Below are positions 8,513 to 32,000 of a DNA stretch of 32,000 bases, one piece after another. A program made the position numbers and the translations under genes. Below the pieces are notes generated by a model. It saw only the letters and a list, made by a program, of their open reading frames with translations. It did no database searches and was not told the origin of the DNA. Location: contig CAZFVS010000001.1 in the NCBI GenBank assembly GCA_964522265.1, positions 2,400 to 34,399 of the forward strand, read 5' to 3'. The DNA is from an uncultured Gammaproteobacteria bacterium. Lineage in GTDB: Bacteria; Patescibacteriota; Microgenomatia; Daviesbacterales; UBA10151. Numbering within the stretch: the first letter of the stretch is position 1; each line of letters opens with the position of its first letter.

Positions 8513-9558
8513 AAAAATTAAAAATCGGGATTGATATTACGGCGATGAATCCCTTGAGTCTGAATCGGGGGATAGGATTTTACACCAACAAGTTATTTAA
8601 AGCACTAACTAAATATACAAATTGTGATGTTATATTGGTTGAAAAAAAGGGAGAAATAGACAATTTAGACCTAGTGCACTATCCTTATTTTGATTTTTTT
8701 TCTCCTACACTACCCCTAATAAAAAAATTGCCGATAGTAGTTACTGTTCATGACGTAATTCCTTTGGTTTTTTCGGAGCATTACCCACCAGGATTAAAAG
8801 GTTATTTTAATTTAAAAATACAAAAATTTTCCCTAAAAACAATTCAAGCAGTTATTACAGACTCTATAGCTTCCAAGTTAGACATAATGGAATATTTAAA
8901 TGTTGCTGAAAATAAAATTTTTACAATTTATCTTGCGCCTGATGAAAAGTTCAAAAAAGAAAAAGATTTTAAAATGTTAAAAACCGTTAAAGAAAAATAT
9001 AATTTGCCTGAAAAATTTGCCCTTTATGTAGGCAATATTAACTGGAATAAGAATTTGCTTAATTTAACAAAAGCATGTATTAACGCCGGTATAAACCTTT
9101 ATCTTATAGGAGATGAAAAAAAAAAAAAAAAAAACCGCGAACATCCTGAATTAAAAGATTACAAAATGTGGATCGAAAAATATTCAACTCATCAAAAAAT
9201 CCACGTTATAGACACATATCCTGAAAATGATATTGTTGAGATTTATAATTTAGCTGAGGTTTTACTCCTCCCCTCTTTTTGTGAAGGGTTTGGGTTGCCT
9301 ATTTTGGAAGCTCAAGCTTGTGGTACACCTGTCATCACAAGCAATGTATCCTCAATGTTGGAAGTAGCTGGGGATAGTGCAATCCTTGTAAATCCCAACG
9401 AAACGGACGAAATTATGAACGCAATTAAATCTCTTGAGGATAAATCGATAAAAAATAAGCTGGTTGAAAATGGCTTGAGAAATACAGAAAAATTTTCATG
9501 GAAAAAAGTTGCACAAGAAACTTTCTCAGTATATCAAAATATTTTCTCAAAAGTTTAA
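8509..9558 (+). CDS. GT4 (GT-B fold) glycosyltransferase containing an A19 tract
   Basis: C-terminal EGFGLPILEAQACGTPVITSN (E-x7-E signature). The reading frame passes intact through the homopolymer at 9116-9134 (EKKKKKN). Confidence 0.85.
   Translation: MKKLKIGIDITAMNPLSLNRGIGFYTNKLFKALTKYTNCDVILVEKKGEIDNLDLVHYPYFDFFSPTLPLIKKLPIVVTVHDVIPLVFSEHYPPGLKGYFNLKIQKFSLKTIQAVITDSIASKLDIMEYLNVAENKIFTIYLAPDEKFKKEKDFKMLKTVKEKYNLPEKFALYVGNINWNKNLLNLTKACINAGINLYLIGDEKKKKKNREHPELKDYKMWIEKYSTHQKIHVIDTYPENDIVEIYNLAEVLLLPSFCEGFGLPILEAQACGTPVITSNVSSMLEVAGDSAILVNPNETDEIMNAIKSLEDKSIKNKLVENGLRNTEKFSWKKVAQETFSVYQNIFSKV
9116..9134. repeat. A19 homopolymer inside the GT4 coding sequence
   Basis: Read directly from the sequence: gatg + 19 A + ccgcgaacat. 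It is by far the longest homopolymer in the window. Confidence 0.95.
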
Positions 9559-9560
9559 TA

Positions 9561-11006: not shown

Positions 11007-11010
11007 TTTT

Positions 11011-12159
11011 ATGCATAAATTTTCTTTGAATAAATCAATTTTAATCTACTTTACCATTTGGAGAATTTTCCTTTTTTTTATCGCATTTATTTCTACTATT
11101 ATCATTGGTAATTTTGGTGCAAGATTTCCTTATTATAAGGAATTACTTATTAGTACTGGTTTGCCTGCTTGGATTTGGGGATTCGGTAATTTTGACGGCG
11201 TGCATTATTTAACTATAGCTGAGAAAGGGTATGTAGCTCAATTTACTCAAGCTTTTTTCCCACTTTATCCCCTATTGGTAAAATTCCTAACAATTAACGG
11301 GGGTTATTTATTAACTGCACTGGTTTTATCGAATATATTTTTTTTAGCCGCTCTTTTTTTGTTGTATGAGTTATTCAGAATTGATTATGATGGTAAAATT
11401 TCTTTTAAATCACTTTGTTTGCTTCTTGCAATCCCCACGTCATTTTATTTCGGCGCTGTACATTCGGAATCATTATTCCTATTTTTTAGTGTAGGCAGTA
11501 TATTAGCAATTAGAAAAAAAAAGTATATTTTATCAGGTTTACTCGCAGGTTTTGCTTCTGCCACAAGAATAGTTGGTGTTTTTTTAACACCGCTCATTTT
11601 AATTGAAGTAATAAGTTTACTTAAGGCTGGATCGTTAAACCTTAAAAGCAAAGAATTCCCCAGAGCGCTTCTTTCTTTATTAATAGCGCCAACAGGACTT
11701 ATTATTTATATGATTTTTTTAAAAATCCAATTCAATGACCCACTTTATTTTTTAAATGCACAACATGCTTTTGGAACAGGCAGAAGTGATCAAAATTTTA
11801 TTCTCTTGCCCCAAGTTTTTTATAGATACATAAAAATCTTATTCACAGTTAATGTTATATCGTTGCCCTTTTTTAATGCCTTGTTAGAGCTTATCTTTAC
11901 CGTAATACCGTTAGCTTTATTAATTTTAAAAATTAAAAAAATTAGATTTAGTTATTTTATTTTTACTGTGGGTAGTCTTGTATTACCGACATTAACCGGG
12001 ACCTTAACATCAATGCCAAGATTTATCCTAATGGGTTTTTTACTTCTTCCTGTAGTGGTTATAAGCCTCAATAAGTATTTTAAAGCGATAATTGTCATAA
12101 TGATATTACTTCAAGCACTACTACTGAGTTTGTTCATAAGAGGCTATTGGGTTGCATAA
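11011..12159 (+). CDS. PIG-V-like (Mannosyl_trans2 / GT-C) membrane mannosyltransferase
   Basis: WGFGNFDGVHYLTIAEKGY...AFFPLYPLLV matches the WD..HY..IA..GY...AFFPLYP pattern of the PIG-V family. 382 aa, polytopic. Confidence 0.6.
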   Translation: MHKFSLNKSILIYFTIWRIFLFFIAFISTIIIGNFGARFPYYKELLISTGLPAWIWGFGNFDGVHYLTIAEKGYVAQFTQAFFPLYPLLVKFLTINGGYLLTALVLSNIFFLAALFLLYELFRIDYDGKISFKSLCLLLAIPTSFYFGAVHSESLFLFFSVGSILAIRKKKYILSGLLAGFASATRIVGVFLTPLILIEVISLLKAGSLNLKSKEFPRALLSLLIAPTGLIIYMIFLKIQFNDPLYFLNAQHAFGTGRSDQNFILLPQVFYRYIKILFTVNVISLPFFNALLELIFTVIPLALLILKIKKIRFSYFIFTVGSLVLPTLTGTLTSMPRFILMGFLLLPVVVISLNKYFKAIIVIMILLQALLLSLFIRGYWVA

Positions 12160-12199
12160 ATACTTGAGGGGATATGAAGTAAATGGTAATATTCTGCCT

Positions 12200-12877
12200 A
12201 TGAAAGGTCTAGTTATTATTCCTGTTTTTAACGAAGAGCAGGTTATCTATAAAGTTATTTCTAAAATTCCCCAAAAAATTGAAAGACATAAATTAGATAT
12301 ACTGGTAATAAATGATGGGTCAACAGATTTGACGGAAGAAAGAGTTAGAAAAACCAAAGCAAAGGTTTTATCCCATCCTTTAAATAGAGGTTTGGGTGCA
12401 GCTTTGGGAACAGGTTTTGCATTTGCTAAGATGAAAAATTATGATTTTTTAATAACAATCGATGGTGATGGTCAGCATGATCCAAGGGAAATACCTAAAT
12501 TACTGAAGCCAATTATTAATGCAGAGGCTGATTTTATAGTTGGGACAAGAATAAACAAAGGAAGGATGCCTTTTAAAAGGCGGATACTTACCTTCTTTGC
12601 AACCTTAGCCACTTTTTTAATAACTGGTGTTTGGACGACTGATTCCCAATCCGGATTTAGAATATTTTCCAAGGAAGCTATCAAAAAAATTAATATTCAA
12701 GTTGATAAAATGGAGATTTCATCGGATTTTTTCCGTCAATGTAGAGAAAAGGGATTGGTTATTTTAGAGATTCCCATAAAAGCGATCTATACAAAATATT
12801 CTATAGCAAAGGGGCAGAATTTTTTTAACTCATTTAATATAATAGGAAAATTAATATTGCAAAATTTAAATAAATAA
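12200..12877 (+). CDS. GT2 polyprenyl-phosphate sugar synthase (DPM1/Ppm1/GtrB/ArnC-like)
   Basis: MKGLVIIPVFNEE...LVINDGSTD...NRGLGAALGTGF...IDGDGQHDP is the typical motif set of polyisoprenyl-phosphate glycosyltransferases. The first in-frame ATG is at 12200. The track start at 12152 is a TTG that overlaps the upstream stop. Confidence 0.75.
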   Translation: MKGLVIIPVFNEEQVIYKVISKIPQKIERHKLDILVINDGSTDLTEERVRKTKAKVLSHPLNRGLGAALGTGFAFAKMKNYDFLITIDGDGQHDPREIPKLLKPIINAEADFIVGTRINKGRMPFKRRILTFFATLATFLITGVWTTDSQSGFRIFSKEAIKKINIQVDKMEISSDFFRQCREKGLVILEIPIKAIYTKYSIAKGQNFFNSFNIIGKLILQNLNK

Positions 12878-12878
12878 T

Positions 12879-13238
12879 ATGCAGATTATTACTCAGTTTT
12901 TTACAATTGTTTTTACTGTTTTCGCTCTAAGCAGAGCATATTTGCGCTTTAAGGAGCGGAAATTATCATCCTTTGCTTTTATATTTTGGATTTTCGTATG
13001 GATAACAGGGACTGTGGCTATTTTTTTTCCTGATTTAACTACCAAGATAGCCAGGTTTGTCGGAATCGGTAGAGGTGTAGATATTGTCCTTTATGCCTCA
13101 ATTGTTATTATTTTTTATCTACTTTTTAGAATTTACATTAAAATTGAGGATACTCAAAGACAGATTACCCAAATCGCAAGAAAAATTGCCCTCCGCAGAG
13201 TGTTGAAAAGCAAGAAAAGAACTGCCGGAAAATCATGA
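12879..13238 (+). CDS. Small 3-TM membrane protein, DUF2304-like
   Basis: 119 aa with three hydrophobic helices, a GIGRGVDIVLYASIV motif and a basic C-terminal tail. It lies immediately after the GT2, which is the usual DUF2304 context. Confidence 0.6.
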   Translation: MQIITQFFTIVFTVFALSRAYLRFKERKLSSFAFIFWIFVWITGTVAIFFPDLTTKIARFVGIGRGVDIVLYASIVIIFYLLFRIYIKIEDTQRQITQIARKIALRRVLKSKKRTAGKS

Positions 13239-15457
13239 AAATTCTTTTTGTGACCGAGTTTTTTCCGTACTCTAATGAATTGATATTTAGTGGAGGGGTA
13301 GAGGCTTACAATTTTTATCTAATCAGTGAATTATCAAAAAAGCATCAAATTAGCGTGATTTGTAGGAATCAAGGATCCGGTAATTTAAAGCCCAGATTTA
13401 ATTTTAAGATTATTAGAATAGGACATAAAAGTATAAGGATAGATACCGATATCAGTACTTTGCCGTATAGGTTATCGTTTTTTATACAGGCATTGAGATT
13501 AGGATTACGGGAAGATTTTGATATTGTGCAGGGTAATAACTTTGTTACATACCCGATTGCTTTTTTACTAGGAGTTCTTAAAAAAAGACCTGCCATTGCC
13601 TGGTATCCGGATGTATTTATTGGCAAATGGATAAAATTGACGGGATTACTGCCTGGGGTAATAGGAGAAATCGTAGAAAGGATTTCATTGGTTTTGCCTT
13701 GGGCACATGTGATAGCCCTTAGTGGGGAAACAAAGTATAAATTGTTAAGGCTTGGGATAGATGACAAAAATATTTCCCTAATATATGCAGGCATTGATCT
13801 GGTTTTTTTTAAAAAGATCAAAATAAGAAAAAATAAGATTTTAACTTTATGTTGCGTTTCACGACTTGTTAGGTATAAAAGAATAGATTTGTTAATTAAG
13901 GCTGCATCTGTACTCAAAATAAAGGGTTATAAATTTAAGGTTTATATTGTTGGTAATGGTCCTGAAAAAAATAATCTGATAAATTTAAGAGAGGAATTGG
14001 GTTTGGAATCGTTCGTTGTATTTGAATCTGATCTTTCCAGAATTGAGTTGGGGAAAAGAATAAAATCCTCACATCTTTTTTGTCATCTATCCGAAGCTGA
14101 AGGCTTTGGGATGGTTCTTTTGGAAGCAGCGGCCTGTGGAGTTCCGATTGTAGCAAGTAATCTAAGAATTCTAAGAGAGATTACCCAAAATGGCAAGGGA
14201 ACAATTTTCTTTGAACCGGGTAATTATAATAATTTAGCAAAAAAGATAGAGCAAATTATAAAAAACAAAAAATTTCGTCAAGAGTTATCAAAGGATGTAT
14301 TTAATTTGGCAGCAGCTTACTCCTGGACTAAAATTACCAAGGATTTTGAGACAATTTATTTCAAATTAACAACTAAAAAAATAAAAATTCTTATGCTTAT
14401 AGATGCGTGGTTTCCCTATGTTGGAGGGGGACAAATTCATGTTTGGGAGTTGTCCAAACAATTGGCCAAGATAGGTTGCGAAATAACAATTTTTACCAGG
14501 GATTTAGGCAGATGGAATGAATTTTCAGATGGGGTTAGGGTAATAAAGGTAGGCTTTTCCAAAAAATTCGCAAATATTTTCGGTAGGATTGAGTACTTAA
14601 TTTATGCATTAATTTACAGCTTGAGTGCTAAATATGATATTCTCCACGCGCATGCCTTTTCTCCCGGATTGATTGCACCATTTGTAAAAATCCTTAGAAA
14701 TAAACCTGTGGTTTATACTGTACACGGGAAAGGGGCAAAAATAGCCGGATTAGGGTTTGGAGAGAAGTTTCTTGAGAATTTAGTCACTTATAAAATACCT
14801 TATAATTTGGAAATAACCGTTGCTAAAAATACCATAACCAAAAAAACCTCAGCCAAGAAATTAGTAGTAGTCCCGAATGGTGTAGATATAGAAAAATTTG
14901 CAACAGCTAGAAGAAAAAGGACAAAAATCAAAAAAATTTTATATGTCGGCAGATTAAGCTATGAAAAGGGTGTAGATATATTGATTGAAGCTTTTAAAGG
15001 TTTAAAAAGCAAGAAATTAAGTTTATCAATGGTGGGAGAGGGAGGGGAATATGAAAAACTTAAAAAAATGGCTAGAGAAGTTAATATAAATTTTCTCGGC
15101 AAATTAACCAGTCATCATTTAATAAGTGAATATAAAAAAGCGGATTTATTAGTTTTACCGTCCAGAACAGAGGGACAACCTTTAGTTCTTTTTGAAGCTT
15201 GGGCTGCTAAATTACCTATATTGGTAACTAGAGTTGGTGATAATGAAAAATATATTAAAGATGGAGTAAATGGTTATTTAACTTATCCTGATGTTAAATC
15301 ATTAACGATGTCTATTAATAAAATCTTTGATATTAAAGATATTGGAGAAGTGACAAATAAAGCTTACTTAAGAGTACAAAAATTCAGCTGGAATAACATT
15401 GCATACAAAACTTTAGGAGGATATAATCAATTACTTTATGGGGAAGCCCAAAATTAG
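13235..15457 (+). CDS. Tandem double GT4 glycosyltransferase (two complete GT-B modules in one ORF)
   Basis: Module 1 carries EAEGFGMVLLEAAACGVPIVASN. Module 2 begins near nt 14378 (KILMLIDAWFPYVGGGQ) and carries TEGQPLVLFEAWAAKLPILVT. Each module has an E-x7-E signature. Confidence 0.8.
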   Translation: MKILFVTEFFPYSNELIFSGGVEAYNFYLISELSKKHQISVICRNQGSGNLKPRFNFKIIRIGHKSIRIDTDISTLPYRLSFFIQALRLGLREDFDIVQGNNFVTYPIAFLLGVLKKRPAIAWYPDVFIGKWIKLTGLLPGVIGEIVERISLVLPWAHVIALSGETKYKLLRLGIDDKNISLIYAGIDLVFFKKIKIRKNKILTLCCVSRLVRYKRIDLLIKAASVLKIKGYKFKVYIVGNGPEKNNLINLREELGLESFVVFESDLSRIELGKRIKSSHLFCHLSEAEGFGMVLLEAAACGVPIVASNLRILREITQNGKGTIFFEPGNYNNLAKKIEQIIKNKKFRQELSKDVFNLAAAYSWTKITKDFETIYFKLTTKKIKILMLIDAWFPYVGGGQIHVWELSKQLAKIGCEITIFTRDLGRWNEFSDGVRVIKVGFSKKFANIFGRIEYLIYALIYSLSAKYDILHAHAFSPGLIAPFVKILRNKPVVYTVHGKGAKIAGLGFGEKFLENLVTYKIPYNLEITVAKNTITKKTSAKKLVVVPNGVDIEKFATARRKRTKIKKILYVGRLSYEKGVDILIEAFKGLKSKKLSLSMVGEGGEYEKLKKMAREVNINFLGKLTSHHLISEYKKADLLVLPSRTEGQPLVLFEAWAAKLPILVTRVGDNEKYIKDGVNGYLTYPDVKSLTMSINKIFDIKDIGEVTNKAYLRVQKFSWNNIAYKTLGGYNQLLYGEAQN

Positions 15458-16148
15458 CGTTGTAATGCCTGTTTATAATGGAGGAAAATACTTAAAACAA
15501 TCTTTGAAAAGTATTTTAAACCAAACGTATAAGAACTTTGAACTTATTGTTGTGAACGATGGTTCAACAGACTCAACAGCTAAAATTTTAACTACGATTA
15601 ATGATAAAAGACTTAAGATTATTCACAATATTTACAATGTAGGAGTAGCCAAGTCATTAAACAGAGGTTTAAAAATCGCAAAAGGTGATTATATAGCAAG
15701 ATGTGATAGTGATGATATAAATTTTAAAAAGAGGTTTAAAATACAGATAGATTTTTTAGATAAACATCTATCATATGCACTTGTTGGATCAAATGCAATG
15801 CTGATTGACGAAAAAGGTAAAAAAATAAAAAAGACTAGTTTGCCCGCAACTGATAGTCAGATAAGAAAAAAAATTTTATTTAGAAATCCAATTCTCCATC
15901 CAGCAGTGGTTTATCGAAAAAAATTAATGAATAAAACTATAAACTATAGAGAAATGTTTAATGGTGCTGAAGATTATGATTTATGGTTTAGGCTACTTAA
16001 GATAGGGAAAGCATATAATTTTAAGGATTCTTTGATTAAGCATAGGATTCATAAAGACATCGTCACTAAAAAATTTCATCTTAAAATAGAATTATTAGCT
16101 TTGTTTGTCAGGCTTAATAATTTTTCATTTTTGAAATATATATTATGA
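15438..16148 (+). CDS. GT2 (GT-A fold) glycosyltransferase
   Basis: ISVVMPVYNGGKYLKQSLKSILNQTYKNFELIVVNDGSTDST and a DSDD (DxD) motif. Confidence 0.85.
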   Translation: MGKPKISVVMPVYNGGKYLKQSLKSILNQTYKNFELIVVNDGSTDSTAKILTTINDKRLKIIHNIYNVGVAKSLNRGLKIAKGDYIARCDSDDINFKKRFKIQIDFLDKHLSYALVGSNAMLIDEKGKKIKKTSLPATDSQIRKKILFRNPILHPAVVYRKKLMNKTINYREMFNGAEDYDLWFRLLKIGKAYNFKDSLIKHRIHKDIVTKKFHLKIELLALFVRLNNFSFLKYIL

Positions 16149-18142
16149 ACCTACAAAATAAAAAAATATTGATAACAGGTGGAGATGGGTTTATCGGTAG
16201 ACATTTGGTTTTTGGTCTTAAGCGATTGGGAGCCAAGATTGACATCTTTGATAGAAATAGAGGAGATGATATGAATGATTATAAAAAACTGGAAAAAATT
16301 CTTAAAAAAAACTATTTTGCAGTTTATCATTTAGCAGGAGTGTCAGGAGCTGTACAAAGCATTACACAAGAACGTAATTTTTTAAATATTAATACTTTGG
16401 CTTCAATTAAATTGGCTGAGCTATTACTAGAACATACGCCCAATACTAAATTAATTATTTCAAGTACCAGACTTGAATATGGTGTACCAAAATATCTTCC
16501 AGTGGATGAGCAACACCCAACTTTTCCTATATCTATATATGGATTGTCAAAATTAGCATTTACCCAAATAGCCATGGGTTTTTTTGCCAAGTGGGGATTG
16601 GATATCACAATCCTTCGTACCTCAAATGTTTATGGTCCTCATCGTAAGGATATTTTTAAGGGTTACAACGTCATAAACTTTTTTGTAAATTTGGCATTTA
16701 ATAATAAAACGATCCAAATTTTTGGGGATGGATCTCAATTACGTGATTATCTCTATATTGATGATTTTGTTCAGGTTTTGATAAAAGCATTAGACAAAAA
16801 AAGTAAAGGAGAGATTATTAATATTGGATTTGGTAAAGGAATATCGATTAAAGCTATTGTCAAAAAAATTATACGATATTGGGGTAAAGGTAAAATAAAG
16901 TTTATCAAATGGCCTAAAAATTATCAACTTGTTGAGTCCGGAAGTTATATAACCAATATTAAAAAGGCACAAGAATTATTAGATTTTCAGCCAACGATTG
17001 ATTTTGACGAAGGTATTGCTTTGTCAATGAATAGTTGTATCAAAATTTGTTCTCCACATCTTGGTATAAACCCGGAATCGATTTTAGGAGGTGAAATATT
17101 TGACCGACAAATTCTCTTAGGTCTTGCCGAAAAAGGTGTGAATATTGAAATTATCCTTCCGTTTACCCTAAAACATGATGACCATAAAAATTGGCATATA
17201 ACTAATTTACCAATAGTACATTTTCCCGCAATCTTATTTAATATTTTTATTTTACCGTATCTTTTTATTTTATATAAGTTAAGAAAATTTAGAATAATCA
17301 GAATTCATTCTCCCAGATATGTTGGCTTAGGTTGCTTGATCTTTAAAATGATTAATCCAAAAGTTAAATTAATAGCCACATATCACCAATTCAGAGAAAC
17401 AAATTTTTTTTGGTTAAGCAAAATTGTTAATAAAGCTTGGGACCATATTATTTGTGATAGCGAAAACGTTAAAAGAGAACTCAATAGAAAATATGGAATA
17501 AGTTTAACCAATATTACCGTTGTGCATAATGGAGTTCCTTCCTACCTAAAACCTATGCCTAAAAATAAACAGCTCATGAAACAATTTAAATTGCAAGGGA
17601 AAAATATTCTTTTATATATGGGGTTGTTTATAGATCGGAAGACCCCCTTATTTTTAATTGATGTTCTAAAAAAACTAGTTCAAAAAGATAAAAATATTAT
17701 TCTTTTGATGGTTGGTAAGGGGGAACTAGAGCATCAAATTATAAGTCGAGCTAAAGATAATGGGGTTTTTAATAATCTAAGATTGATCAAACAGGTTTTT
17801 GGAGAGGAGAAAAATCAAATTAAAAAATTAGAAGACTTGTTCGTCTTTCCTTCAAAGGACGAGGGATTTGCTCTTGCTCCCCTTGAAGCCATGGCATGCG
17901 GTGTACCGGTAATAGAAAATAATAGACACTCAGCTGCGGAAGCTGTCACTAATGGTAAAAATGGCTATTTGTGCCAAACTGATAATATTAATGATTGGAC
18001 AAATAAAATAAACAAAATTTTGTCAGATTTAAAATTACGTACAAAAATGAGCGATAATTGTTTAAAAAGAATAAATAAAGAATTTGATTGGGAACAAGCT
18101 GTTAATCACCACATTGCAGTGTTTAAAAAGTTAATTTCATGA
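16145..18142 (+). CDS. Fusion protein: extended-SDR sugar epimerase/dehydratase (N-terminal) plus GT4 glycosyltransferase (C-terminal)
   Basis: N-terminal GGDGFIGRHL (GxxGxxG), SSTRLEYG and YGLSKLA (YxxxK). From about aa 295 onward there is a GT-B module with DEGFALAPLEAMACGVPVIEN (E-x7-E). An in-frame ATGA lies at the domain junction (17027-17030). Confidence 0.8.
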   Translation: MNLQNKKILITGGDGFIGRHLVFGLKRLGAKIDIFDRNRGDDMNDYKKLEKILKKNYFAVYHLAGVSGAVQSITQERNFLNINTLASIKLAELLLEHTPNTKLIISSTRLEYGVPKYLPVDEQHPTFPISIYGLSKLAFTQIAMGFFAKWGLDITILRTSNVYGPHRKDIFKGYNVINFFVNLAFNNKTIQIFGDGSQLRDYLYIDDFVQVLIKALDKKSKGEIINIGFGKGISIKAIVKKIIRYWGKGKIKFIKWPKNYQLVESGSYITNIKKAQELLDFQPTIDFDEGIALSMNSCIKICSPHLGINPESILGGEIFDRQILLGLAEKGVNIEIILPFTLKHDDHKNWHITNLPIVHFPAILFNIFILPYLFILYKLRKFRIIRIHSPRYVGLGCLIFKMINPKVKLIATYHQFRETNFFWLSKIVNKAWDHIICDSENVKRELNRKYGISLTNITVVHNGVPSYLKPMPKNKQLMKQFKLQGKNILLYMGLFIDRKTPLFLIDVLKKLVQKDKNIILLMVGKGELEHQIISRAKDNGVFNNLRLIKQVFGEEKNQIKKLEDLFVFPSKDEGFALAPLEAMACGVPVIENNRHSAAEAVTNGKNGYLCQTDNINDWTNKINKILSDLKLRTKMSDNCLKRINKEFDWEQAVNHHIAVFKKLIS

Positions 18143-22326: not shown

Positions 22327-23901
22327 ATGCTGAATTTTTTTAAAAATCCAATATTCATATTAATATTAGTTGGGATATTTATTGGAGTATCTTTATTAGG
22401 ACATTTAAATTTAGGTACACCATCTATAGATTCGGCTACTTTTTTATATATAGCTAAAGAAATCACAAAAGGGAAAATTCCATACAAAGATATTTTTGAT
22501 CATAAGGTACCTCTTGTGTATTTTATTGATGTTGCGGGGTTGTTAATTAGCAAGCATTCTTTATTTGGAGTTTGGATGTTGGAATTCATATCACTTTTTG
22601 TTTCAGTAATCCTGAGTTTTTATTTGGTTAAAAAAATTTTTGGTCCCTTTCCAGCTTTTTTATCAACCCTCGCTTGGCTGAATATTTTCTTTAAATTATT
22701 AAATGGAGGCAATTTAACTGAAGAATATGCAATACCCTTTCAATTTGGGGGAATTTATCTTTTTTGGTTATCAGAAAATAAAGAGGATAAAAACAATAAT
22801 ATAACCTGGATAGTATTTGGAATATTATCCGCCTTAGTATTTTTTTTAAAACAAAATCTAATAGGAATATTCTTTATAATATGTATTATAGAATTTATAA
22901 AGGGAGTAAGGAATAAAAAATGGAATCATTTAATAAAACTTTTCAGGAATTTTTTTATTGGAAATCTATTAGTGTTTCTTCCGTTTATGCTTTATTTTAT
23001 AGTTAACGATGCTTTGAGCGATTTTTCCAACTTTGCTTTTAGGTATAATCTTTATTATTCAGGAAAAGCTTTTTCAAATTTTTTCAATGTTGTATTCAGC
23101 GGGCTCCAATTAATGTTATTTTCACCCCTTGGTTTTTTGGGACTTTTGGGGTGGTTTGATGTAGTAGTTGTTCTGCTGTATGGCTTTTATAGAAAAGAAC
23201 TTAAAGACAAAAAAAGTATTTTATTTTTTTTACTTCTTCTTTTACCGATAGAGTATTTGTTAGTAAGTACAAGCGGGAAAATCTATACACATTATTATAT
23301 AGTTTGGATTCCTGCAATGACTTTGCTTACGGGTTATATCATATATATGATACAGGCCTATTGGAAAAAAATGTGGTTTGGTCAAAAACAACATCGTGAT
23401 GTAATACTTTTTTTAGTACTACCCGTCATAATATTATGGATTTTTTGGCAAAACTTGGTTTCGTTCTATCGTGGATTAGAATCCATACGTAATCTGCGCT
23501 ATCAAAAATTAGAAATATCTAATTTTATTGACCATAATACTTCTTCGGATGACTATATTTTTATTTGGGGGGTTGGATCCACTATAAACTTTGATTCAAA
23601 CAGACGATCACCCTCCAGGTTTATTTACCAAACACCGCTATATATAAAGGGTTTTCAGAATCCGTCGATGTACTACGAATTACTATATGATTTAATAAAT
23701 AAAACCCCAGAGTATATTTTAGACGGAAATACTCAAAAAGATAAATTTAGACCAATTATTTGTAACAAACCATTTCGTATAGAAGATTACCACCCTGCTA
23801 TGATACCTCTTTCGGAAATAAAAATTGTTGAAAACTTTATTTGTAAAAATTATAAAATTATAGGTATAATTGATGGCTATAAAGTTTTAAAGAAGATATG
23901 A
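22327..23901 (+). CDS. Polytopic GT-C-like membrane glycosyltransferase (ArnT/PMT_2-like)
   Basis: The loop after TM1, SIDSATFLYIAKEITKGKIPYKDIFDHKVPLVYF, resembles the D...Y.D.FDHKPPL pattern of ArnT/PMT_2 enzymes. 524 aa with more than 10 TM segments and a soluble C-terminal domain. Confidence 0.55.
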   Translation: MLNFFKNPIFILILVGIFIGVSLLGHLNLGTPSIDSATFLYIAKEITKGKIPYKDIFDHKVPLVYFIDVAGLLISKHSLFGVWMLEFISLFVSVILSFYLVKKIFGPFPAFLSTLAWLNIFFKLLNGGNLTEEYAIPFQFGGIYLFWLSENKEDKNNNITWIVFGILSALVFFLKQNLIGIFFIICIIEFIKGVRNKKWNHLIKLFRNFFIGNLLVFLPFMLYFIVNDALSDFSNFAFRYNLYYSGKAFSNFFNVVFSGLQLMLFSPLGFLGLLGWFDVVVVLLYGFYRKELKDKKSILFFLLLLLPIEYLLVSTSGKIYTHYYIVWIPAMTLLTGYIIYMIQAYWKKMWFGQKQHRDVILFLVLPVIILWIFWQNLVSFYRGLESIRNLRYQKLEISNFIDHNTSSDDYIFIWGVGSTINFDSNRRSPSRFIYQTPLYIKGFQNPSMYYELLYDLINKTPEYILDGNTQKDKFRPIICNKPFRIEDYHPAMIPLSEIKIVENFICKNYKIIGIIDGYKVLKKI

Positions 23902-24951: not shown

Positions 24952-25944
24952 ATGCAACAACTTTTATATTTAGTTCCATCAGCATCTTCGTATAAAAAAG
25001 CGATAGGAAATGCCTTTCTTCAACTTGGTTGGAAAGTTAAATATTTTGATTACAGAAAAGGTGACTTTCCCATTAGAGTCTATAGATTTCTACCTTTAAT
25101 CGGCGGTTTTGAGAAAGCCAAGACAGTTTTAGAGAATAGGATTATAGAAATAAACAAAGAATTAAAACCCGATTTAATTCTTACTGCAAAAGGAGAACTA
25201 TTAACGGAAAGAGTGATGAAAACTATAAAAAAATCCTGGAATATAACAGCTAATATATTTCCTGACTATTTAAACCACTGGGAGCTAATAAAAAAAATTT
25301 CTGCTTATTATGATTTCTTCTTTACTTTTGATAATGCCATAATAAAAAAATTAAAGAGAATTGGAAGGAAGAATGTATATTATATGCCGCAAGCAACCCA
25401 ACCAGAGAAGAATATAAAAAAAGGAAAAAAATATGATGTTTCATTTGTCGGAACATATAATAAATGGCGGGAAAATTATTTCACTGGATTGAGAAGTCTT
25501 GATTTTAATATTTGGGGGGATAAAAGATGGTTTAATTCCTCACTGAAAAAATATGTAAGGGGTGGAAGGATACCACTAAAAAGAATGAAGGAAATTATTA
25601 AAAAAAGTAGAATCAATATAAATGTTTTTTTTGATGATGAGACTCCAATGGAAGGAGTGAGTATTAGGCCGTATGAAATTACCGGCTCAGGAGGATTTTT
25701 GTTGACTCAATATGTTAAGGATTATGATAATGTTTTTTTAAATAAAAAAGAAATAGTTTATTTTAAAACTCCGGCGGAAATGAAAAGATATATTGAATTT
25801 TATCTCAAGAAAGATGATTTAAGAAACAAAATAGCTGAAAGAGGCTATGTAAGAACTTTAAAAGATCATACTTATGAAATTCGTATGAAACAAATGCTTA
25901 TAATTATAAATAAAGCCCGGAAAAAAGGATCATTTGATATCTGA
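24952..25944 (+). CDS. CgeB-like glycosyltransferase (Glyco_trans_1_2 / DUF3880-type)
   Basis: The C-terminal pattern VSIRPYEITGSGGFLLTQ...EIVYFKTPAEMKRYIEFYLKKDDLRNKIAERGY...HTYEIRMKQML matches the CgeB-family consensus (R.FE..G.G......e.v.f.s.eel...yyl...R..ia..g....HTy..R). Confidence 0.7.
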   Translation: MQQLLYLVPSASSYKKAIGNAFLQLGWKVKYFDYRKGDFPIRVYRFLPLIGGFEKAKTVLENRIIEINKELKPDLILTAKGELLTERVMKTIKKSWNITANIFPDYLNHWELIKKISAYYDFFFTFDNAIIKKLKRIGRKNVYYMPQATQPEKNIKKGKKYDVSFVGTYNKWRENYFTGLRSLDFNIWGDKRWFNSSLKKYVRGGRIPLKRMKEIIKKSRININVFFDDETPMEGVSIRPYEITGSGGFLLTQYVKDYDNVFLNKKEIVYFKTPAEMKRYIEFYLKKDDLRNKIAERGYVRTLKDHTYEIRMKQMLIIINKARKKGSFDI

Positions 25945-27279
25945 AATAATAACCCTGATAGTTTCATATAATCGATCTTTGTAAAGTTTATTATCAAAAT
26001 ACAAATATCTTCTTATGGCAACAGATAAAATATGTTTATAAGTACGATTAACAGCAGATTCATTTTTAAATTTTACTGTCAATATTCTAAAATGATTTTT
26101 TAACCCCTTAAGATTATAGGCAAAAAACCATCCCGGGATAGTCACTGCTCCCTCAAAGTGTTTCCATTTGGATTGTAAACTTGCAGGGATTGGATTATAT
26201 TTATCGGGGTGTGCCAAAACTAAAGTTGATACATCAAAGATAGCTGCCTCTAAAATTAATGAGGACAAGGGTGATATGACAAACAAAGCATTATTTAACA
26301 AGTGTGGATAGTAATTAAGTTCAGGAAAATTTTGTGCCGCCCCTGATTCCATCCCCTTCTCTTTATCCCTGTAATAGTCATCAGCAACCTGAGGGTCAAT
26401 AATGATATGTTTAAAATCTTTTTCTTGAAATAGATCCCTCCCTTTTCTGGAAGCCCTCATTGGATGGGGTCTGTAAACAATTTTGATGTCCTTTATTTTC
26501 ATATCCTCTAAAATCTGATCACAGATTTTAAGCGGGGTTATCTCGTCTGCGGCAGTTGTAGAACCTGCAAAAAGGATATATTTAAAAGGGAATAAAAATT
26601 TGTCCCCCGCTCTTTTTTTGAAATAATTTTCATAACGGGAGCATCCAATTAAAAAACATTGATGCGATTGCATACCCTGAATGTTTACGGCGTCCACTAG
26701 AGCTTGAGGCCCCCACACACCCAAATAATCTGGTTTGAGTAATAATACTCCCTTGCTGGAAAGATTATCCCACCCGTTTGTTAAAAAGAAAGTTTTAAAT
26801 TTATATTTTTCAGATAACAATTTAAGCTCTATTCCGGTTGCTTCATATCCGGATGTTGGGAATAAAACCAAATTCGGCTGAAAATCCTTAATATTTTTTT
26901 CCAAGCTTTTATTGACTACAAATTTCTTGAGTAATATCTTTTGAGCAAAGTTATAAAAAAAAGGCAAAGCAAATAAATTGAATATTAAAGAGTCCTTGAA
27001 ATTAGCATCATATTTTTTTGTTTTAATATCAAATGTAGAGGATTTTTTTTTGAAATGCCGCATTGAAATTTGATTAAAAACTTTAACCCGGTTTTTATTT
27101 TCTTCCAAGCGGATATAGTCAACGACCTTAAAGGATTTTGGGATAAATTTCCGGAGTTTGACAACCGCATCAGAAAGAGCAAAAGCAGTCTGAAAGTTAT
27201 TATTTATTTTGTCTAAGGATCCGGATAAAATAAAATTTCTAAAATAGAGATCATTGTCTATACATACTAAAATTTTCAT
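25930..27279 (-). CDS. GT-B-like transferase, TagB/TagF (CDP-glycerol glycerophosphotransferase)-like pattern
   Basis: I prefer the ATG at 27279 (MKILVCIDND...), which sits downstream of a good promoter; the track start at 27327 lies inside that promoter. Ordered motifs are GVWGPQALVD, YILFAGSTTA, IVYRPHP and FVISPLSSLILEAAIFDV, compared with TagF-type G.P..D, ILYAPTxR, K.HP and ITDYSS..FD. Confidence 0.45.
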   Translation of the reverse strand: MKILVCIDNDLYFRNFILSGSLDKINNNFQTAFALSDAVVKLRKFIPKSFKVVDYIRLEENKNRVKVFNQISMRHFKKKSSTFDIKTKKYDANFKDSLIFNLFALPFFYNFAQKILLKKFVVNKSLEKNIKDFQPNLVLFPTSGYEATGIELKLLSEKYKFKTFFLTNGWDNLSSKGVLLLKPDYLGVWGPQALVDAVNIQGMQSHQCFLIGCSRYENYFKKRAGDKFLFPFKYILFAGSTTAADEITPLKICDQILEDMKIKDIKIVYRPHPMRASRKGRDLFQEKDFKHIIIDPQVADDYYRDKEKGMESGAAQNFPELNYYPHLLNNALFVISPLSSLILEAAIFDVSTLVLAHPDKYNPIPASLQSKWKHFEGAVTIPGWFFAYNLKGLKNHFRILTVKFKNESAVNRTYKHILSVAIRRYLYFDNKLYKDRLYETIRVIISDIK

Positions 27280-27298
27280 ATTTGCTTCAATTTGCATA

Positions 27299-27327
27299 AA
27301 TATAACAGATAGACTTCTACTTGACAA
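27299..27327 (-). promoter_or_regulatory. Sigma-70-type promoter for the 27279 gene, with its -35 overlapping the plus-strand -35
   Basis: On the minus strand: TTGTCA (27327-27322), exactly 17 nt, then TATATT (27304-27299). The ATG at 27279 lies about 20 nt downstream. Confidence 0.55.
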
Positions 27328-27349
27328 ACAATAATGTGATTGTTAAAAT
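27321..27349 (+). promoter_or_regulatory. Sigma-70-type promoter for the 27370 gene
   Basis: TTGACA (27321-27326), exactly 17 nt, then TAAAAT (27344-27349). The ATG lies about 20 nt downstream. Confidence 0.6.
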
Positions 27350-27369
27350 CCCCCAAGAGTTACGACAAA

Positions 27370-28665
27370 ATGCTTACAGAACTACAAAGAGAATACGTCG
27401 ATAAAATACATATACCAAGTCTTGAAAAAGCACAAATAGACTTATTTTTACCAATAAATGTATATGACGATCTATTAAAATTTGAATACCCTAAGTATAT
27501 TTTCCCACGTTATAGAGGTCGCAATTTAAGGATTCTTTGGATTTTAAGGGATGCAGGTGGATTTAGCGCAGGTTTACCTGTTATGAATTTATTAAAAGAT
27601 GAAGCGGTAGATCTATATATAGTTGCTGATAATCCTGCGAAGAGAGAACTGGAAAGTAAAATTGACAGTATAGGTTTGATGAAAACCGAGGAATGTTCGG
27701 TTGGTGGTAGGATGGTTCAGTTTTTACCAGATGGTGTAGTAACTGGGCATTCGGCCAAGTTTGACCTGGAACAAGTATTTACAGCTGTAGCAAAAGATAC
27801 AGGGGCAAAGTCAGTTCTTTATGAAGATATGTCACCTTTTGCAGCATTTTACAGAAGAATTGCCGCTAGGGAAGGATGGCTTGTTGTCCCGGATCATTTT
27901 TTTGCAGGAAGTGAAAGTTCGGCAAAAATAAGTGCACAGTTTGTACCGCAGTTTGCAAATAGAACATCTGTCGTTGGAAACCCTGCTTTTGATAAATTTG
28001 TAAGTGAAAATTTTGATAGTACTTATAAACGCGTAAGACAAGAATTGGGTATAGAGGATGATGAAAAGTTAATTGTTTACATGGCGACAAAAACAAGGGC
28101 AACGTTTTTAACATTTAGGGATTTAGTTAATTACGGTGCCAACAAATTAAACGGAGAAAAATATAAATTATCTGTAAGAGTTCATCCCCAAGAGCAAAAA
28201 GACCCGCAAATAAAAGAAGATTATGCAACAGTTTTGGCTAAAGTAGGGGACCATGCTGTAAATACCATGCTTCCAAATGATGAAGGTAAGATGCGTTACT
28301 CAACTGATGAGATAAGGTTGGCAGCAGATATTGTGGTGACTGACACATCAACTGCAGGTTTTGAGGCAATTTTGGATAAAGGCAGAAGGTTGGTTATCCA
28401 TGCTCTCATCCCTGATAATATGCAAGTAAGGGATGAGTGGAAGGATGAGTTTCCACCTGAACCGGCAGTAATTGCAGATGGTTCAAGCGCTGTAGTAAGA
28501 GGAAAGAAAGAGTTTGAGGGAGTACTTAAAAGTTTGTTTAATGATGCTGAAACTCAAACTAAAATGTTAGAAGCATCACAGATTTGGAAAAATATGAATG
28601 ATGGGCAATCAGCCCAAAGGTTTAGAGATAGGTTAATGGAGATAGTGCAAAAAATTATTTTATAA
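27370..28665 (+). CDS. GT-B-like transferase, TagB/TagF-like pattern (distant from its divergent neighbour)
   Basis: I prefer the ATG at 27370, because the track TTG at 27340 lies within the -10 region of the promoter. Ordered motifs are VVGNPAFDKF, LIVYMATKTRA, SVRVHPQE and ADIVVTDTSTAGFEAIL. Confidence 0.45.
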   Translation: MLTELQREYVDKIHIPSLEKAQIDLFLPINVYDDLLKFEYPKYIFPRYRGRNLRILWILRDAGGFSAGLPVMNLLKDEAVDLYIVADNPAKRELESKIDSIGLMKTEECSVGGRMVQFLPDGVVTGHSAKFDLEQVFTAVAKDTGAKSVLYEDMSPFAAFYRRIAAREGWLVVPDHFFAGSESSAKISAQFVPQFANRTSVVGNPAFDKFVSENFDSTYKRVRQELGIEDDEKLIVYMATKTRATFLTFRDLVNYGANKLNGEKYKLSVRVHPQEQKDPQIKEDYATVLAKVGDHAVNTMLPNDEGKMRYSTDEIRLAADIVVTDTSTAGFEAILDKGRRLVIHALIPDNMQVRDEWKDEFPPEPAVIADGSSAVVRGKKEFEGVLKSLFNDAETQTKMLEASQIWKNMNDGQSAQRFRDRLMEIVQKIIL

Positions 28666-28684: not shown

Positions 28685-30649
28685 TTAACGAAACAGGTTT
28701 CTAATTTTTTTAGCTAAACTTTCTGCATCCAGACCGTGGTATTTTAAAACTTCCTGGTTTGTTCCACAAGCCGGGATTATTTCTACTCCAAAAGATACAA
28801 CCTGCGGTTTTTTGTCAAATTCTCTAGTAATTGTTGCAGCAATCATCGTCCCCTGGCCAAAACCAGTGTAGTGGTCGTCAAGGGTAAAAACTGTTTTGTA
28901 AGGATTCAGAATCCTTTTTAACCATGTCGAATCCACTCTGTTAAGCCATGGGAGGTTAATGACTGCCAAACCGACCTTCTCGTCTTTCAAAAGTTTTGAG
29001 GCAAGGTAAGCTTCTTTTAACATAACCGGGCCATATGAAATTATTGCTGCATCATCCCCCTCCAAAATTTTTACCCCTTTACCGTCAGTAAGTTCATATT
29101 TTTTAGACAGTTTGTATGGTAATTCAATAGGTATGCTGACCAGGCGAATATAACTTGATGAAGGATTTTGATAAACTGCCCAATTTATAGCCTGTCTTGT
29201 TTCAGACTCATTGCAAGGCTCCAGCATTATTAGCCCCGGATTATCAGCCAAAGCAGAAATATCTCTCACAGATTGGTGAGAATGCCCCGGTCCCCCAGGA
29301 ATGAGTCCTGCTAAAGACCCAACATAGATGATTTTGGTTCTCTCTGAAGAGTTATTATATATTTGGGCATTTGCATGTGTTGACAGGAAGCAGGCAAAAG
29401 AATGGACAATTGGTAATCTACCCCTAAGTGCCAATCCTCCAGCCATGGAAACCATATCCTGTTCTGCTATTCCGCATTCGACATACCTTTCGGGGATTTG
29501 GGCCTTGAATGGTATGAGGCCTGTATCTAAGACTAAATCTGCATCCATAGCAACAATATCTTTTCTTCGTTTTGCAATTTTTACAAGTTCATCTGAATAG
29601 GCATTTGTAACCAACTTTTCCGGGTTTTGTGGCGACAATCCTTGAGGTATCTCAAAATCTATTAATCCCAAAGGCTCTTTTTTTTCTTGTGATAAATTAG
29701 TATTTACTCTCCTGACTAATTCTGTAATTCCTAATAGATAATGATCTAAGCTTGGTGCACCAGAGTGAAATTTATAAAGATGGTCGGAAGAATTATCTAA
29801 GGCATTGGCACCCTTATGTAATTTCAACCCCTCCATTACAGAGACCCCCTTGCCCTTTATCGTATCAGCAATTAACACCTGTGGTTTGTCTTTTACTCTT
29901 TTAATTCTATTCAAAGCAGTTTGCAAAGCTTGGAAGTCATGGCCGTTACATTTTTGTACAAACCAACCAAATGAGCTAAATTTAGCTTCTAAATCACCTA
30001 AACTGCTGGTGTTTTTAACCCAAACATCTGATTGAATTTTATTATGATCAACTATAATTGTTATTTCTGAAAATTTTCCATTTGCCGTAGGTTGTAAACT
30101 CTCCCAAAACTGGCCTTCCTGAAGCTCGCCGTCTCCTGTCAAGACGTAAAATCGCCCTTTTTTGTCCTCCGAACGATTTGAGATAGCCATTCCCCTGGCT
30201 TTTGATATACCCATCCCCAAGGCTCCGGTATTCGTAACTATGCCTGGGGTTTGAATATCAGGGTGTCCGGGCAGGCCGTTTAACCTTCTTAAGCGGTGTA
30301 CAAAATCAAAATCTAATTTTTCAAGCCCAATTAGCACTGAATATAAAGCTGGAACATCATGACCTTTTGATGAGAAATAAGTATCAGCTTTTTCCATATG
30401 AGTCAGAAGCCAAGTGACAATATCCATACTGGAAAAACTTGAACCGATATGGCCGGATCCGGCTTCCATGATCATAGATAAGGTATTAATACGGAAGATA
30501 TCTGCAAGGATCTGACTTAATGCTATGGGTTCTTTAATCTCTTTTCTTATTCTTCTGATTTCAGCAAGTGGTACAAATTGAAGTTTTTGATCTTTTTTCA
30601 TAAAGGATTGATTAATTTTATCAAGGTTGTATTGTAGGTGAGCGGGCAT
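28685..30649 (-). CDS. Transketolase, single-chain fusion of the short (split-type) N- and C-terminal halves
   Basis: GSGHIGSSFSSMDIV, the TPP motif LTGDGELQEGQFWESL...VDHNKIQ, and the pyrimidine-binding half IAEQDMVSMAGGLALRG..PIVHSFACF. An alternative start is the ATG at 30601. The 30649 start overlaps the aldolase 3' end by 29 nt. Confidence 0.85.
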   Translation of the reverse strand: MPAHLQYNLDKINQSFMKKDQKLQFVPLAEIRRIRKEIKEPIALSQILADIFRINTLSMIMEAGSGHIGSSFSSMDIVTWLLTHMEKADTYFSSKGHDVPALYSVLIGLEKLDFDFVHRLRRLNGLPGHPDIQTPGIVTNTGALGMGISKARGMAISNRSEDKKGRFYVLTGDGELQEGQFWESLQPTANGKFSEITIIVDHNKIQSDVWVKNTSSLGDLEAKFSSFGWFVQKCNGHDFQALQTALNRIKRVKDKPQVLIADTIKGKGVSVMEGLKLHKGANALDNSSDHLYKFHSGAPSLDHYLLGITELVRRVNTNLSQEKKEPLGLIDFEIPQGLSPQNPEKLVTNAYSDELVKIAKRRKDIVAMDADLVLDTGLIPFKAQIPERYVECGIAEQDMVSMAGGLALRGRLPIVHSFACFLSTHANAQIYNNSSERTKIIYVGSLAGLIPGGPGHSHQSVRDISALADNPGLIMLEPCNESETRQAINWAVYQNPSSSYIRLVSIPIELPYKLSKKYELTDGKGVKILEGDDAAIISYGPVMLKEAYLASKLLKDEKVGLAVINLPWLNRVDSTWLKRILNPYKTVFTLDDHYTGFGQGTMIAATITREFDKKPQVVSFGVEIIPACGTNQEVLKYHGLDAESLAKKIRNLFR

Positions 30650-31313
30650 TTTTTACAGCATCTAAATACCTCTTAGTCTTTTCAATAATTTCGTTCCAAT
30701 TTTTCGTTTCCATAATTTTGTCATTTAGTACACCCATTACAATAAATGGCGTACCTGCCCTTAAGAGACCGAAAATTTCTTCTTCTTTAATTCCCATTGT
30801 CGGGAAGAAAACCATCCTTGAAAAATGTCCCCTAAAGTGTTTGAAAAAAGCAAGCCTACGGTTAGGTGTTTCCCCATCGGGCAATAACAATTTTACTGTA
30901 TCGCACCCAAGTTCCATTGCTTGACCCACTTCAGTGTCTGTTGAAACACCCGGTGTAATAGGAACACAGTTAATATGGGCGGCTCTGATCACATCTTTGC
31001 TAACCAAATTACTGACTATAAATTGTGCTCCCTGGTTTATGGCTTGATGTGTTCTTTCACCACTTTGGCAGGTACCTGCCCCTACTAAAATTTCAGGAAA
31101 TTGAATTCTTGCTTCATAGATTGCGTCCAAGGATACTTTCGGAGGGATTGAATGGTTTTCTCTTAAAAGTATTTCTATGATAGGTAACCCGCCTTTGATT
31201 AAAGCCTCAATTGTAAGCATGTAATCTCTTACAGAAGTTGCATACACAGTCGGTACCACTCCGAACTGCTCCATTTTTTTGAATACTTCAAAACGGTGCC
31301 AAATTTCTTTCAT
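30621..31313 (-). CDS. Eda-family (KDPG/KHG-type, class I) aldolase
   Basis: GGLPIIEILLRE (Glu of the IEvTlR motif), VGAGTC, GAQFIVSN, PGVSTDTEV and VKLLLP (the position of the Schiff-base Lys in vKfFPa). Its ATG overlaps the stop of the upstream cytidylyltransferase (ATGA on the minus strand). Confidence 0.7.
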   Translation of the reverse strand: MKEIWHRFEVFKKMEQFGVVPTVYATSVRDYMLTIEALIKGGLPIIEILLRENHSIPPKVSLDAIYEARIQFPEILVGAGTCQSGERTHQAINQGAQFIVSNLVSKDVIRAAHINCVPITPGVSTDTEVGQAMELGCDTVKLLLPDGETPNRRLAFFKHFRGHFSRMVFFPTMGIKEEEIFGLLRAGTPFIVMGVLNDKIMETKNWNEIIEKTKRYLDAVKNARSPTIQP

Positions 31314-31999
31314 ATTTTTTTCTTGATGATAATCTCAGCCAGCATTATATCATTCATAGTATCAATATCAACGACATCATCTTTACCCAGTATAACATAT
31401 CTTATCTTTTCTCCTGTTAACAAACCGTCTTTGATCAATGTATTGTAGCGGACAGCTATAACATCAACATGGGCAAAGGCAGGGGGAAATGATTGCCGGG
31501 GGGCATTGGACGGTTCTTTTAAACCTGTTATCTCTTTTGGAATAAAAGGTTTTAACTGCTCTCCATCAATTCTCCATAATTTATAAGGATGTTTTGGTGC
31601 GGTTTTGATAGTACGGGAAGATGTTGCCTGTGGGTCATTCAGTAAAAGCTCAACGCAGGCATCAATTGATTCCGGTTTGCAAAAAGGGGTGGTAGGGGGA
31701 AGTCTTAAGATAATGTCTGCTCTCCATTTTTCATTATCCTCCAACCATTTTGTGGCATGTGTCAAATATGAAATATCATCAGCAGAGTCTACGGAAAGTT
31801 CAGCTGGCCTTAAAAACGGAGTTTCCGCCCCATAAAGTTGGGCAATTTTGGCGTAATCCTGCGAGTCTGTTGAACAAATAACTCTTGTTACATATTTTGA
31901 TTTTTTTGCAGTTTCTATAATCCATGCCATTAAAGGTTTACCGCCTAATGGATAAATATTTTTATAAGGAATAGATTTTGAACCGGATCTTGCTCCTAC
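31310..31999 (-). CDS. NeuA/KdsB-family (CTP_transf_3) ulosonic-acid cytidylyltransferase, 5' end outside window
   Basis: The frame stays open upstream of the track ATG (31930) to the window edge and encodes ARSGSKSIPYKNIYPLGGKPLMAWIIETA, the conserved N-terminal nucleotide-binding motif of this family. FLRPAELSVDSA is also present. Confidence 0.8.
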   Translation of the reverse strand, partial: VGARSGSKSIPYKNIYPLGGKPLMAWIIETAKKSKYVTRVICSTDSQDYAKIAQLYGAETPFLRPAELSVDSADDISYLTHATKWLEDNEKWRADIILRLPPTTPFCKPESIDACVELLLNDPQATSSRTIKTAPKHPYKLWRIDGEQLKPFIPKEITGLKEPSNAPRQSFPPAFAHVDVIAVRYNTLIKDGLLTGEKIRYVILGKDDVVDIDTMNDIMLAEIIIKKKI

Positions 32000-32000
32000 A

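Follow-up and report, generated by a model that had tools for sequence, protein, structure and literature searches.

A cytidylyltransferase, an Eda-like aldolase and a transketolase-like enzyme, probably encoded at the 3' end of a conserved NeuB cassette of Patescibacteria

Which enzyme makes the sugar acid that a cytidylyltransferase activates, when the genes that follow its own encode an aldolase and a transketolase? The question is raised by a stretch of 32,000 nt of contig CAZFVS010000001.1, which in its whole length is called the window below. The minus strand of positions 28685-32000 consists of three consecutive open reading frames (ORFs) that encode a cytidylyltransferase (CT), an Eda-family aldolase and a single-chain transketolase-family enzyme (TK-like). 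The original prediction, made from the sequence alone, had the Eda-type aldolase replace the synthase dependent on phosphoenolpyruvate (PEP). This was not upheld by comparison with related loci, since the orthologous CT cassettes encode NeuB and a KdsC-type phosphatase and have no aldolase. We consider it probable, from sequence and gene order, that the three genes close a conserved and horizontally mobile NeuB cassette at its 3' end. This cassette would make a 2-keto-3-deoxy (ulosonic) acid activated with cytidine monophosphate (CMP) for the surface-glycan island around it, and the aldolase would be an accessory.

CT orthologues (67-79% identical) were detected in eight other loci, and the hosts of the cassette are Patescibacteria and one Vampirovibrio. 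The cassette consists of NeuB, a KdsC-type phosphatase, a short-chain dehydrogenase/reductase (SDR), in some loci an aldehyde dehydrogenase (ALDH), the CT and TK-like, mostly without an aldolase. Six loci (L004, L005, L006, L060, L061 and L062) have NeuB and, save at L060, the KdsC-type phosphatase one to three genes upstream of the CT, and the aldolase is present in none of them. L004 and L005 are the loci of the two closest TK-like relatives. Their operon reads NeuB, KdsC-type phosphatase, SDR, (ALDH), CT and TK-like, and their CTs are 71-72% identical to that of the window. A scan with the CT alignment identified the same operon in Daviesbacteria (L006) and a rearranged cassette (L007) with TK-like beside ALDH and SDR and the CT elsewhere; the CTs of L004, L005, L006 and L007 together are 71-79% identical to the window CT.

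The remaining cassette loci (L060, L061, L058/L059 and L062/L063) were reached via four TK-like proteins chosen from the hit list. Both loci of Curtissbacteria (L060 and L061) encode NeuB, a haloacid dehalogenase family protein (HAD, not in both), SDR, ALDH, CT and TK-like. The Vampirovibrio (L062/L063), which is not a member of the candidate phyla radiation (CPR), has a KpsC/S-type Capsule_synth gene and then NeuB, HAD, SDR, ALDH, CT and TK-like. The Sungiibacteriota locus (L058/L059) encodes a CT, a CT-SDR fusion, an ALDH, an unassigned gene, an Eda-like aldolase and TK-like. In L005, L060 and L062 there is an overlap of 4 nt between the CT and TK-like genes. TK-like genes were linked to the cassette in all 11 loci with readable context, in several gene orders, and TK-like remains beside SDR and ALDH even where the CT has moved (L001 and L007). 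Furthermore, 15 recorded contig sizes are common to the lists of the best 120 TK-like and the best 120 NeuB proteins.

The cassette phosphatases match the model of the phosphatase of 3-deoxy-D-glycero-D-galacto-nonulosonic acid 9-phosphate (Kdn-9-P) at 103-107 bits and the KdsC model at 107-112 bits, in both cases below the equivalog cut-offs. Those of L004 (6013-6939), L005, L006 and L007 carry an N-terminal extension of about 140 residues without family match, and those of L061 and L062 are of the usual size (168 and 180 aa). The amino-sugar genes of the pathways to N-acetylneuraminic, pseudaminic and legionaminic acid (NeuC, PseB/C/H/G and LegB/C/H/G) are absent from the cassette, which comprises NeuB, HAD, SDR, ALDH, CT and TK-like only. 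Genes of the DegT type are found elsewhere in some of the islands, outside the cassette.

A search with the NeuB of L004 retrieved a protein (P0250) of 354 aa with NeuB and SAF domains that is 71% identical. The one NCBI contig on which it is recorded measures 82,604 nt, exactly the size recorded for the contig of the window aldolase and TK-like. This is strong indirect evidence that the contig of the window encodes a cassette-type NeuB, and synteny would place it two to four genes upstream of the CT. A NeuB or KdsA homologue beyond the window edge had been foreseen as a possibility in the original prediction, and P0250 and the NeuB genes of the orthologous cassettes agree with it. The same prediction had named a synthase upstream in the same operon as the observation that would speak against synthesis by the aldolase. 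Such a synthase is present in the relatives and very probably in the window's contig, because NeuB occurs in the orthologous loci and P0250 is recorded on the contig of 82,604 nt.

The window CT (in frame VGARSGSKSIPYKNIYPLGGKPL...RPAELSVDSA) is partial, with about 19 N-terminal residues beyond the window edge as judged against its orthologues. A Pfam scan gave 72.5 bits for its family (PF02348). PseF is its top NCBIfam match at 118 bits and does not reach the equivalog cut-off (205.7), and the KdsB models give at most 41 bits (cut-offs 155-281). The top solved-structure matches of the CT orthologue of L004 are NeuA synthetases of CMP-N-acetylneuraminic acid. Synthesis of a CDP-alditol by the CT was also considered and was rejected on its family and on the context of its orthologues, which is NeuA-like with NeuB.

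Within the trio, an ATGA is common to the CT stop and the aldolase start. The long ORF of TK-like overlaps the aldolase by 29 nt, and from the ATG at 30601 there is a gap of 19 nt instead. This ATG is the likelier start, because the homologue in an independent contig (L003) starts at the equivalent position (MEHDSKLQFIP, for MKKDQKLQFVP in the window). L003 has the same order of CT, aldolase (71% identical) and TK-like, and since the order recurs there we do not regard the arrangement as chance. The aldolase contains the motifs IEILLRE, GAGT, GAQFIVSN and VKLLLP, and TK-like has the domains Transketolase_N, Transket_pyr and Transketolase_C and the motif GDGELQEG. All ORFs and motifs of the original prediction are present with Pfam matches to the three families, and its translational coupling was borne out. 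A scan for promoters and terminators was uninformative, with counts near the shuffled expectation.

TK-like has thousands of relatives. The best 120 share 55-70% identity with it, and most of those with a named source come from Patescibacteria. It missed all transketolase equivalog cut-offs of NCBIfam (356 bits against 488 for NF004559, and 132 against 682 for TIGR00232). Human transketolase is the top solved-structure match (184 bits). We rebuilt residues 18-620 of the human enzyme from the structure alignment and aligned them with ten TK-like sequences, eight of which are cassette members. In this alignment of 11 sequences, equivalents of H37, H77, H110, D155 (of GDG), N185, K244, H258 and E366 are conserved, and the thiamine-diphosphate and catalytic residues are kept in 120 of the best 120 homologues. 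Relative to the human enzyme, the window protein has R318 deleted, S345 replaced by D, H416 by L, D424 by P and R474 by S. Among the same 120 homologues, R318 is a gap in 119, H416 is L in 114, D424 is P in all and R474 is S, N or T in 118; the change of S345 to D was seen in the 11-sequence alignment only.

Based on yeast, E. coli and human transketolase structures, we take Arg318, Arg474, His416 and Ser345 to bind the substrate phosphate and Asp424 to read a sugar hydroxyl (at acceptor C2). In the biochemically characterised split transketolase of C. hydrogenoformans (6YAJ), itself a short enzyme, the S, H, D and R of this set are retained. The human residues R318, S345, H416, D424 and R474 are listed among the active-site residues in a model of the adduct of xylulose 5-phosphate and thiamine diphosphate (PMC8016368). 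Thus TK-like has the three-domain architecture of transketolase (EC 2.2.1.1; human 4KXU and C. hydrogenoformans 6YAK/6YAJ) and keeps its GDG...N motif, the cofactor-activating Glu and the His residues around donor C1/C2, but the equivalents of these five residues are replaced, and it is encoded in a CMP-sugar cassette and not with pentose-phosphate genes. Judged by its residues, TK-like is not a standard transketolase, as those predicted to bind the sugar phosphate are lost. The pattern fits an enzyme that keeps the chemistry of ketol transfer and whose substrate has something other than a sugar phosphate as its distal part. On the replacement of the distal Arg residues for the substrate phosphate we also rejected a role similar to 1-deoxy-D-xylulose 5-phosphate synthase (DXS), which acts on pyruvate and glyceraldehyde 3-phosphate; here we assume that DXS binds this phosphate at positions equivalent to the distal Arg of transketolase.

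The window aldolase matches PF01081 at 100.8 bits (cut-off 27.8) over profile positions 3-194 of 196. All eda models of NCBIfam remain below their cut-offs (118 bits against 156 for TIGR01182), and the identity to E. coli Eda is 24%. Equivalents of Glu45, Arg49, Thr73 and the Schiff-base Lys133 are kept, as aligned to the E. coli sequence via IEILLRE, GAGT and VKLLLP; the solved-structure alignment to 1VHC agrees with this. The clade of this aldolase has an insertion of 6-9 residues after the E..R motif and VSN in place of SPG. It also has PTM followed by G, N or S in place of PTGG (PTMG in the window) and has lost GGS (MG in the window). In Eda, the region of G162-G163 and S184 presumably binds the phosphate of 2-keto-3-deoxy-6-phosphogluconate (KDPG). 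The window protein therefore shares the fold family and the four catalytic residues with the KDPG/2-keto-4-hydroxyglutarate aldolase Eda but differs in its phosphate-binding region, in the insertion and in VSN, and its gene lies in a glycan cassette and not among Entner-Doudoroff genes.

Three close relatives of the aldolase (71, 71 and 51% identical) were found among 5.8 billion clustered proteins. A phmmer search over 1.84 billion representatives detected six clusters at E<=1e-30, followed by ordinary Eda at E~1e-20, and scans of genome and metagenome contigs with the aldolase gave no relatives. The five contexts seen (the window, L003, L001, L058/L059 and L002) are all linked to the cassette. 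In L001, the TK-like, ALDH and SDR genes are on one strand and divergent from the aldolase, and a P-loop (GxxGxGKS) gene begins after the aldolase. L002 consists of a transposase-like ORF, the aldolase and a cassette-type APH-family kinase. The aldolase of L058 is 31% identical to that of the window and has the same clade features. The aldolase adjoins the TK-like gene in three of the five loci, and most cassettes are without it. This clade is rare, divergent and attached to the cassette wherever its context is known, and is not a housekeeping Eda.

Other explanations of the trio have to be weighed against a NeuB cassette with an accessory aldolase. The aldolase might itself be the ulosonic-acid synthase, independent of NeuB, and condense pyruvate with an aldose, with the transketolase supplying the aldose or aldose phosphate and the CT activating the product. 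The catalytic set (Schiff-base Lys, Glu, Arg and Thr) is intact, the gene is coupled to the CT through ATGA, and the clade is seen only with cassette genes. In addition, L058 has the aldolase and no NeuB within 8 kb on either side, and is the one locus where this idea may apply. We find it quite improbable for the window: the orthologous CT and TK-like cassettes carry NeuB and the phosphatase without the aldolase, P0250 shares its recorded contig size with the window proteins, representative clusters number about 6-10 for the aldolase clade and hundreds for the cassette, and TK-like is without the sugar-phosphate-binding residues that a supply role needs. A TK-like enzyme that works as a sugar-phosphate transketolase, with the phosphate bound by other residues, could instead supply the aldose phosphate of NeuB, for example erythrose 4-phosphate or ribose 5-phosphate. 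Linkage with NeuB and a phosphatase implies that the NeuB substrate is phosphorylated, and all catalytic and cofactor residues of transketolase are intact. Nevertheless, this appears unlikely, as the equivalents of R318, S345, H416, R474 and Asp424 are lost and a short bona fide transketolase keeps them, and in the rearranged loci L001 and L007 TK-like adjoins SDR and ALDH and not NeuB.

The aldolase and transketolase could also be ordinary Entner-Doudoroff and pentose-phosphate genes that are co-transcribed with the glycan operon, which the original prediction had offered as its alternative. TK-like is 56-70% identical to many Patescibacteria proteins named 'transketolase', with identity that declines smoothly, and compact CPR genomes often pack unrelated genes together. 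However, TK-like is an operon member across phyla, including the non-CPR Vampirovibrio, and was cassette-linked in each locus that could be read, whatever the order. Its distal substrate-binding residues, with which it would hold a sugar phosphate, are replaced. Both proteins are under every curated equivalog cut-off, and the aldolase belongs to a rare divergent clade, with few relatives and an altered phosphate site. We therefore regard this alternative as very improbable.

In the favoured NeuB cassette, NeuB would condense PEP with an aldose phosphate, the KdsC-type phosphatase would take off the terminal phosphate and the CT would form the CMP-sugar. Neighbouring transferases (TagF-like, the 465-aa protein described below, and KpsC/S-type in Vampirovibrio) would then install the sugar. 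Family membership and synteny argue for each of these steps. The nearest named models of the SDR are D-mannonate oxidoreductase, gluconate 5-dehydrogenase and KduD, which all oxidise the next-to-last hydroxyl of a sugar acid, and a terminal ketol (-CO-CH2OH) is the donor motif of transketolase. For these reasons the SDR might oxidise the next-to-last hydroxyl of the free side chain to such a ketol. TK-like might remove this two-carbon ketol unit, or in reverse add one. The nearest models of the ALDH are 2,5-dioxovalerate and alpha-ketoglutarate-semialdehyde dehydrogenases, and these act on the terminal aldehyde of a 2-keto acid. The ALDH might turn the resulting aldehyde into a carboxylate and thereby give a truncated 3-deoxy-2-ulosaric acid, for example from C9 to C7, for the CT to activate afterwards. 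The aldolase probably acts on a non-phosphorylated 2-keto-3-deoxy acid or a small aldehyde.

The product of the cassette may thus be a truncated ulosaric acid. A more specific version is that the cassette makes a CMP-activated C7 diacid similar to 3-deoxy-D-lyxo-heptulosaric acid (Dha), by oxidative two-carbon truncation of a NeuB C9 acid, with TK-like taking the C2 unit off a non-phosphorylated sugar acid and the aldolase handling the small aldehyde. We put this version forward tentatively and think it rather doubtful.

Several points weigh against the cassette as set out here. The position of NeuB is derived from the matching 82,604-nt record and from synteny, and would lie past nt 32000, beyond the window. 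The ALDH is missing in L005 and L006 and the phosphatase in L060, and given the lack of a nearby NeuB in L058 the core chemistry may vary among the loci. The similarities of SDR and ALDH to their nearest models are far below the curated cut-offs and only suggestive. Finally, the role of the aldolase is speculative: it might serve TK-like by supplying its aldehyde partner or disposing of it, or cleave free ulosonate.

Among known systems, the cassette is most readily compared with the Kdn pathway of Bacteroides thetaiotaomicron and Prymnesium parvum, which consists of Kdn-9-P synthase, Kdn-9-P phosphatase and CMP-Kdn synthetase (PMC6200933). The logic is the same, with a NeuB-family synthase, a KdsC/HAD-type phosphatase and a CTP_transf_3 cytidylyltransferase, and without genes of the NeuC, PseB or LegB type. 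Beyond the genes of the Kdn pathway, the cassette has an SDR and invariably TK-like, in most cases an ALDH, and in some loci an Eda-like aldolase or APH-type kinases. All cassette matches are under the equivalog cut-offs.

Cluster-encoded thiamine-diphosphate enzymes that handle a C2 unit in the tailoring of sugars or natural products include YerE, the E1-like AviB1/B2 and the transketolase pair of naphthyridinomycin, which donates C2. Their sequence families differ from TK-like or are split, and to our knowledge none of them acts on ulosonic acids or CMP-sugars. Searches of the literature for a transketolase associated with NeuB or CMP-ulosonic clusters, or with CPR, gave no relevant result.

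The remainder of the window is one large glycan island with many GT4 and GT2 glycosyltransferases, a methyltransferase and epimerases, and its G+C content ranges across the window from 26 to 39%. Two genes near the trio (Table 1) recur beside the cassette in relatives. Homologues of the TagF-like protein (38-47% identical) adjoin it in L004, L006 and L007, and those of the 465-aa protein lie beside it in L004 (60% identity), L007 (51%) and L060 (35%). The TagF-like protein is a candidate user of the CMP-sugar. The proposal that a CMP-ulosonic-acid pathway feeds neighbouring transferases, also part of the original prediction, is supported by this conservation at the four loci. Pfam scans gave no match for the 465-aa protein, a 281-aa protein of L058, the N-terminal extension of the phosphatases or the other unassigned ORFs.

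Table 1. Genes of the trio and their conserved neighbours in the window
Feature	Position	Strand	Family match
Conserved 465-aa protein, family not assigned	25930..27327	-	no Pfam or NCBIfam match
TagF-like GT-B transferase, convergent with the operon	27340..28665	+	PF04464, 57 bits
TK-like thiamine-diphosphate enzyme	28685-30601 (probable ATG) or 28685-30649 (long ORF)	-	three transketolase domains
Eda-like class I aldolase, rare clade	30621-31313	-	PF01081
CT, CTP_transf_3, NeuA/PseF-like	31310..32000 (5' end past the window edge)	-	PF02348

Elsewhere in the island, four paralogues of PMT_2/PMT-type GT-C proteins were found, three of them in tandem (window 2676-7655 and 22327-23901). Two ORFs (994-2679 and 9498-11006) without family match are located within the same plus-strand glycan operon as the PMT genes. 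The window also encodes a double-GT4 fusion of 740 aa (13235-15457) and a fusion of 665 aa between an NAD-dependent epimerase/dehydratase and GT4 (16145-18142).

Individual cassette loci have features of their own. In L058, the CT-SDR fusion (2854-4449, 531 aa) lies beside a second, stand-alone CT, and the aldolase is directly upstream of TK-like. Just downstream of TK-like (10093-16812) are two TagD-like cytidylyltransferases, three NUDIX hydrolases and an E1 alpha/beta-like thiamine-diphosphate pair, and with this pair the glycan region has two thiamine-diphosphate systems. Downstream of the cassette in L061 (11689-15461), a DmpF-like acetaldehyde dehydrogenase, a DmpG-like 4-hydroxy-2-oxovalerate aldolase and an acetolactate-synthase-type thiamine-diphosphate enzyme are encoded among sugar-nucleotide genes and might together form a module for a branched-chain sugar. 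In two lineages that are not related, the cassette has genes of sulfate activation at its flanks, for ATP sulfurylase, APS kinase and sulfotransferase in L060 (42-3660) and for PAPS reductase-like and CysN/APS kinase proteins in L062 (11979-14815), which hints at a sulfated glycan. The cassette of L007 (CAYOOO010000006.1) contains two APH-family kinases. This locus, labelled uncultured Gammaproteobacteria, has the closest relatives of the window's CT (79% identical), TK-like, TagF-like and 465-aa genes. The label is probably a taxonomic misassignment, as the window genes are otherwise similar to those of Patescibacteria.

The cassette, a unit of six genes, is a conserved and undescribed variant of the CMP-ulosonic-acid cassette with a dedicated TK-like enzyme. 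It points to an uncharacterised acidic surface sugar in many ultra-small CPR bacteria and in at least one Vampirovibrio. A thiamine-diphosphate enzyme acting on the side chain of an ulosonic acid would be new chemistry for this class of sugars. Such chemistry is relevant to the chain-length variants of CMP-ulosonic acids, which are unexplained (10.64898/2026.04.20.719630), and to Dha, for which neither biosynthesis nor nucleotide form has been established (PMC12168206). If a truncated diacid is indeed formed, this would be the first route of biosynthesis to any ulosaric acid. In that case, the protein annotated as 'transketolase' in many Patescibacteria genomes would tailor glycans and not serve the pentose-phosphate pathway. 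More generally, there is a large 'transketolase' subfamily that appears to be without the sugar-phosphate pocket, and if its members are the sole transketolase homologues of their genomes, reconstructions of the non-oxidative pentose-phosphate pathway in CPR need re-examination.

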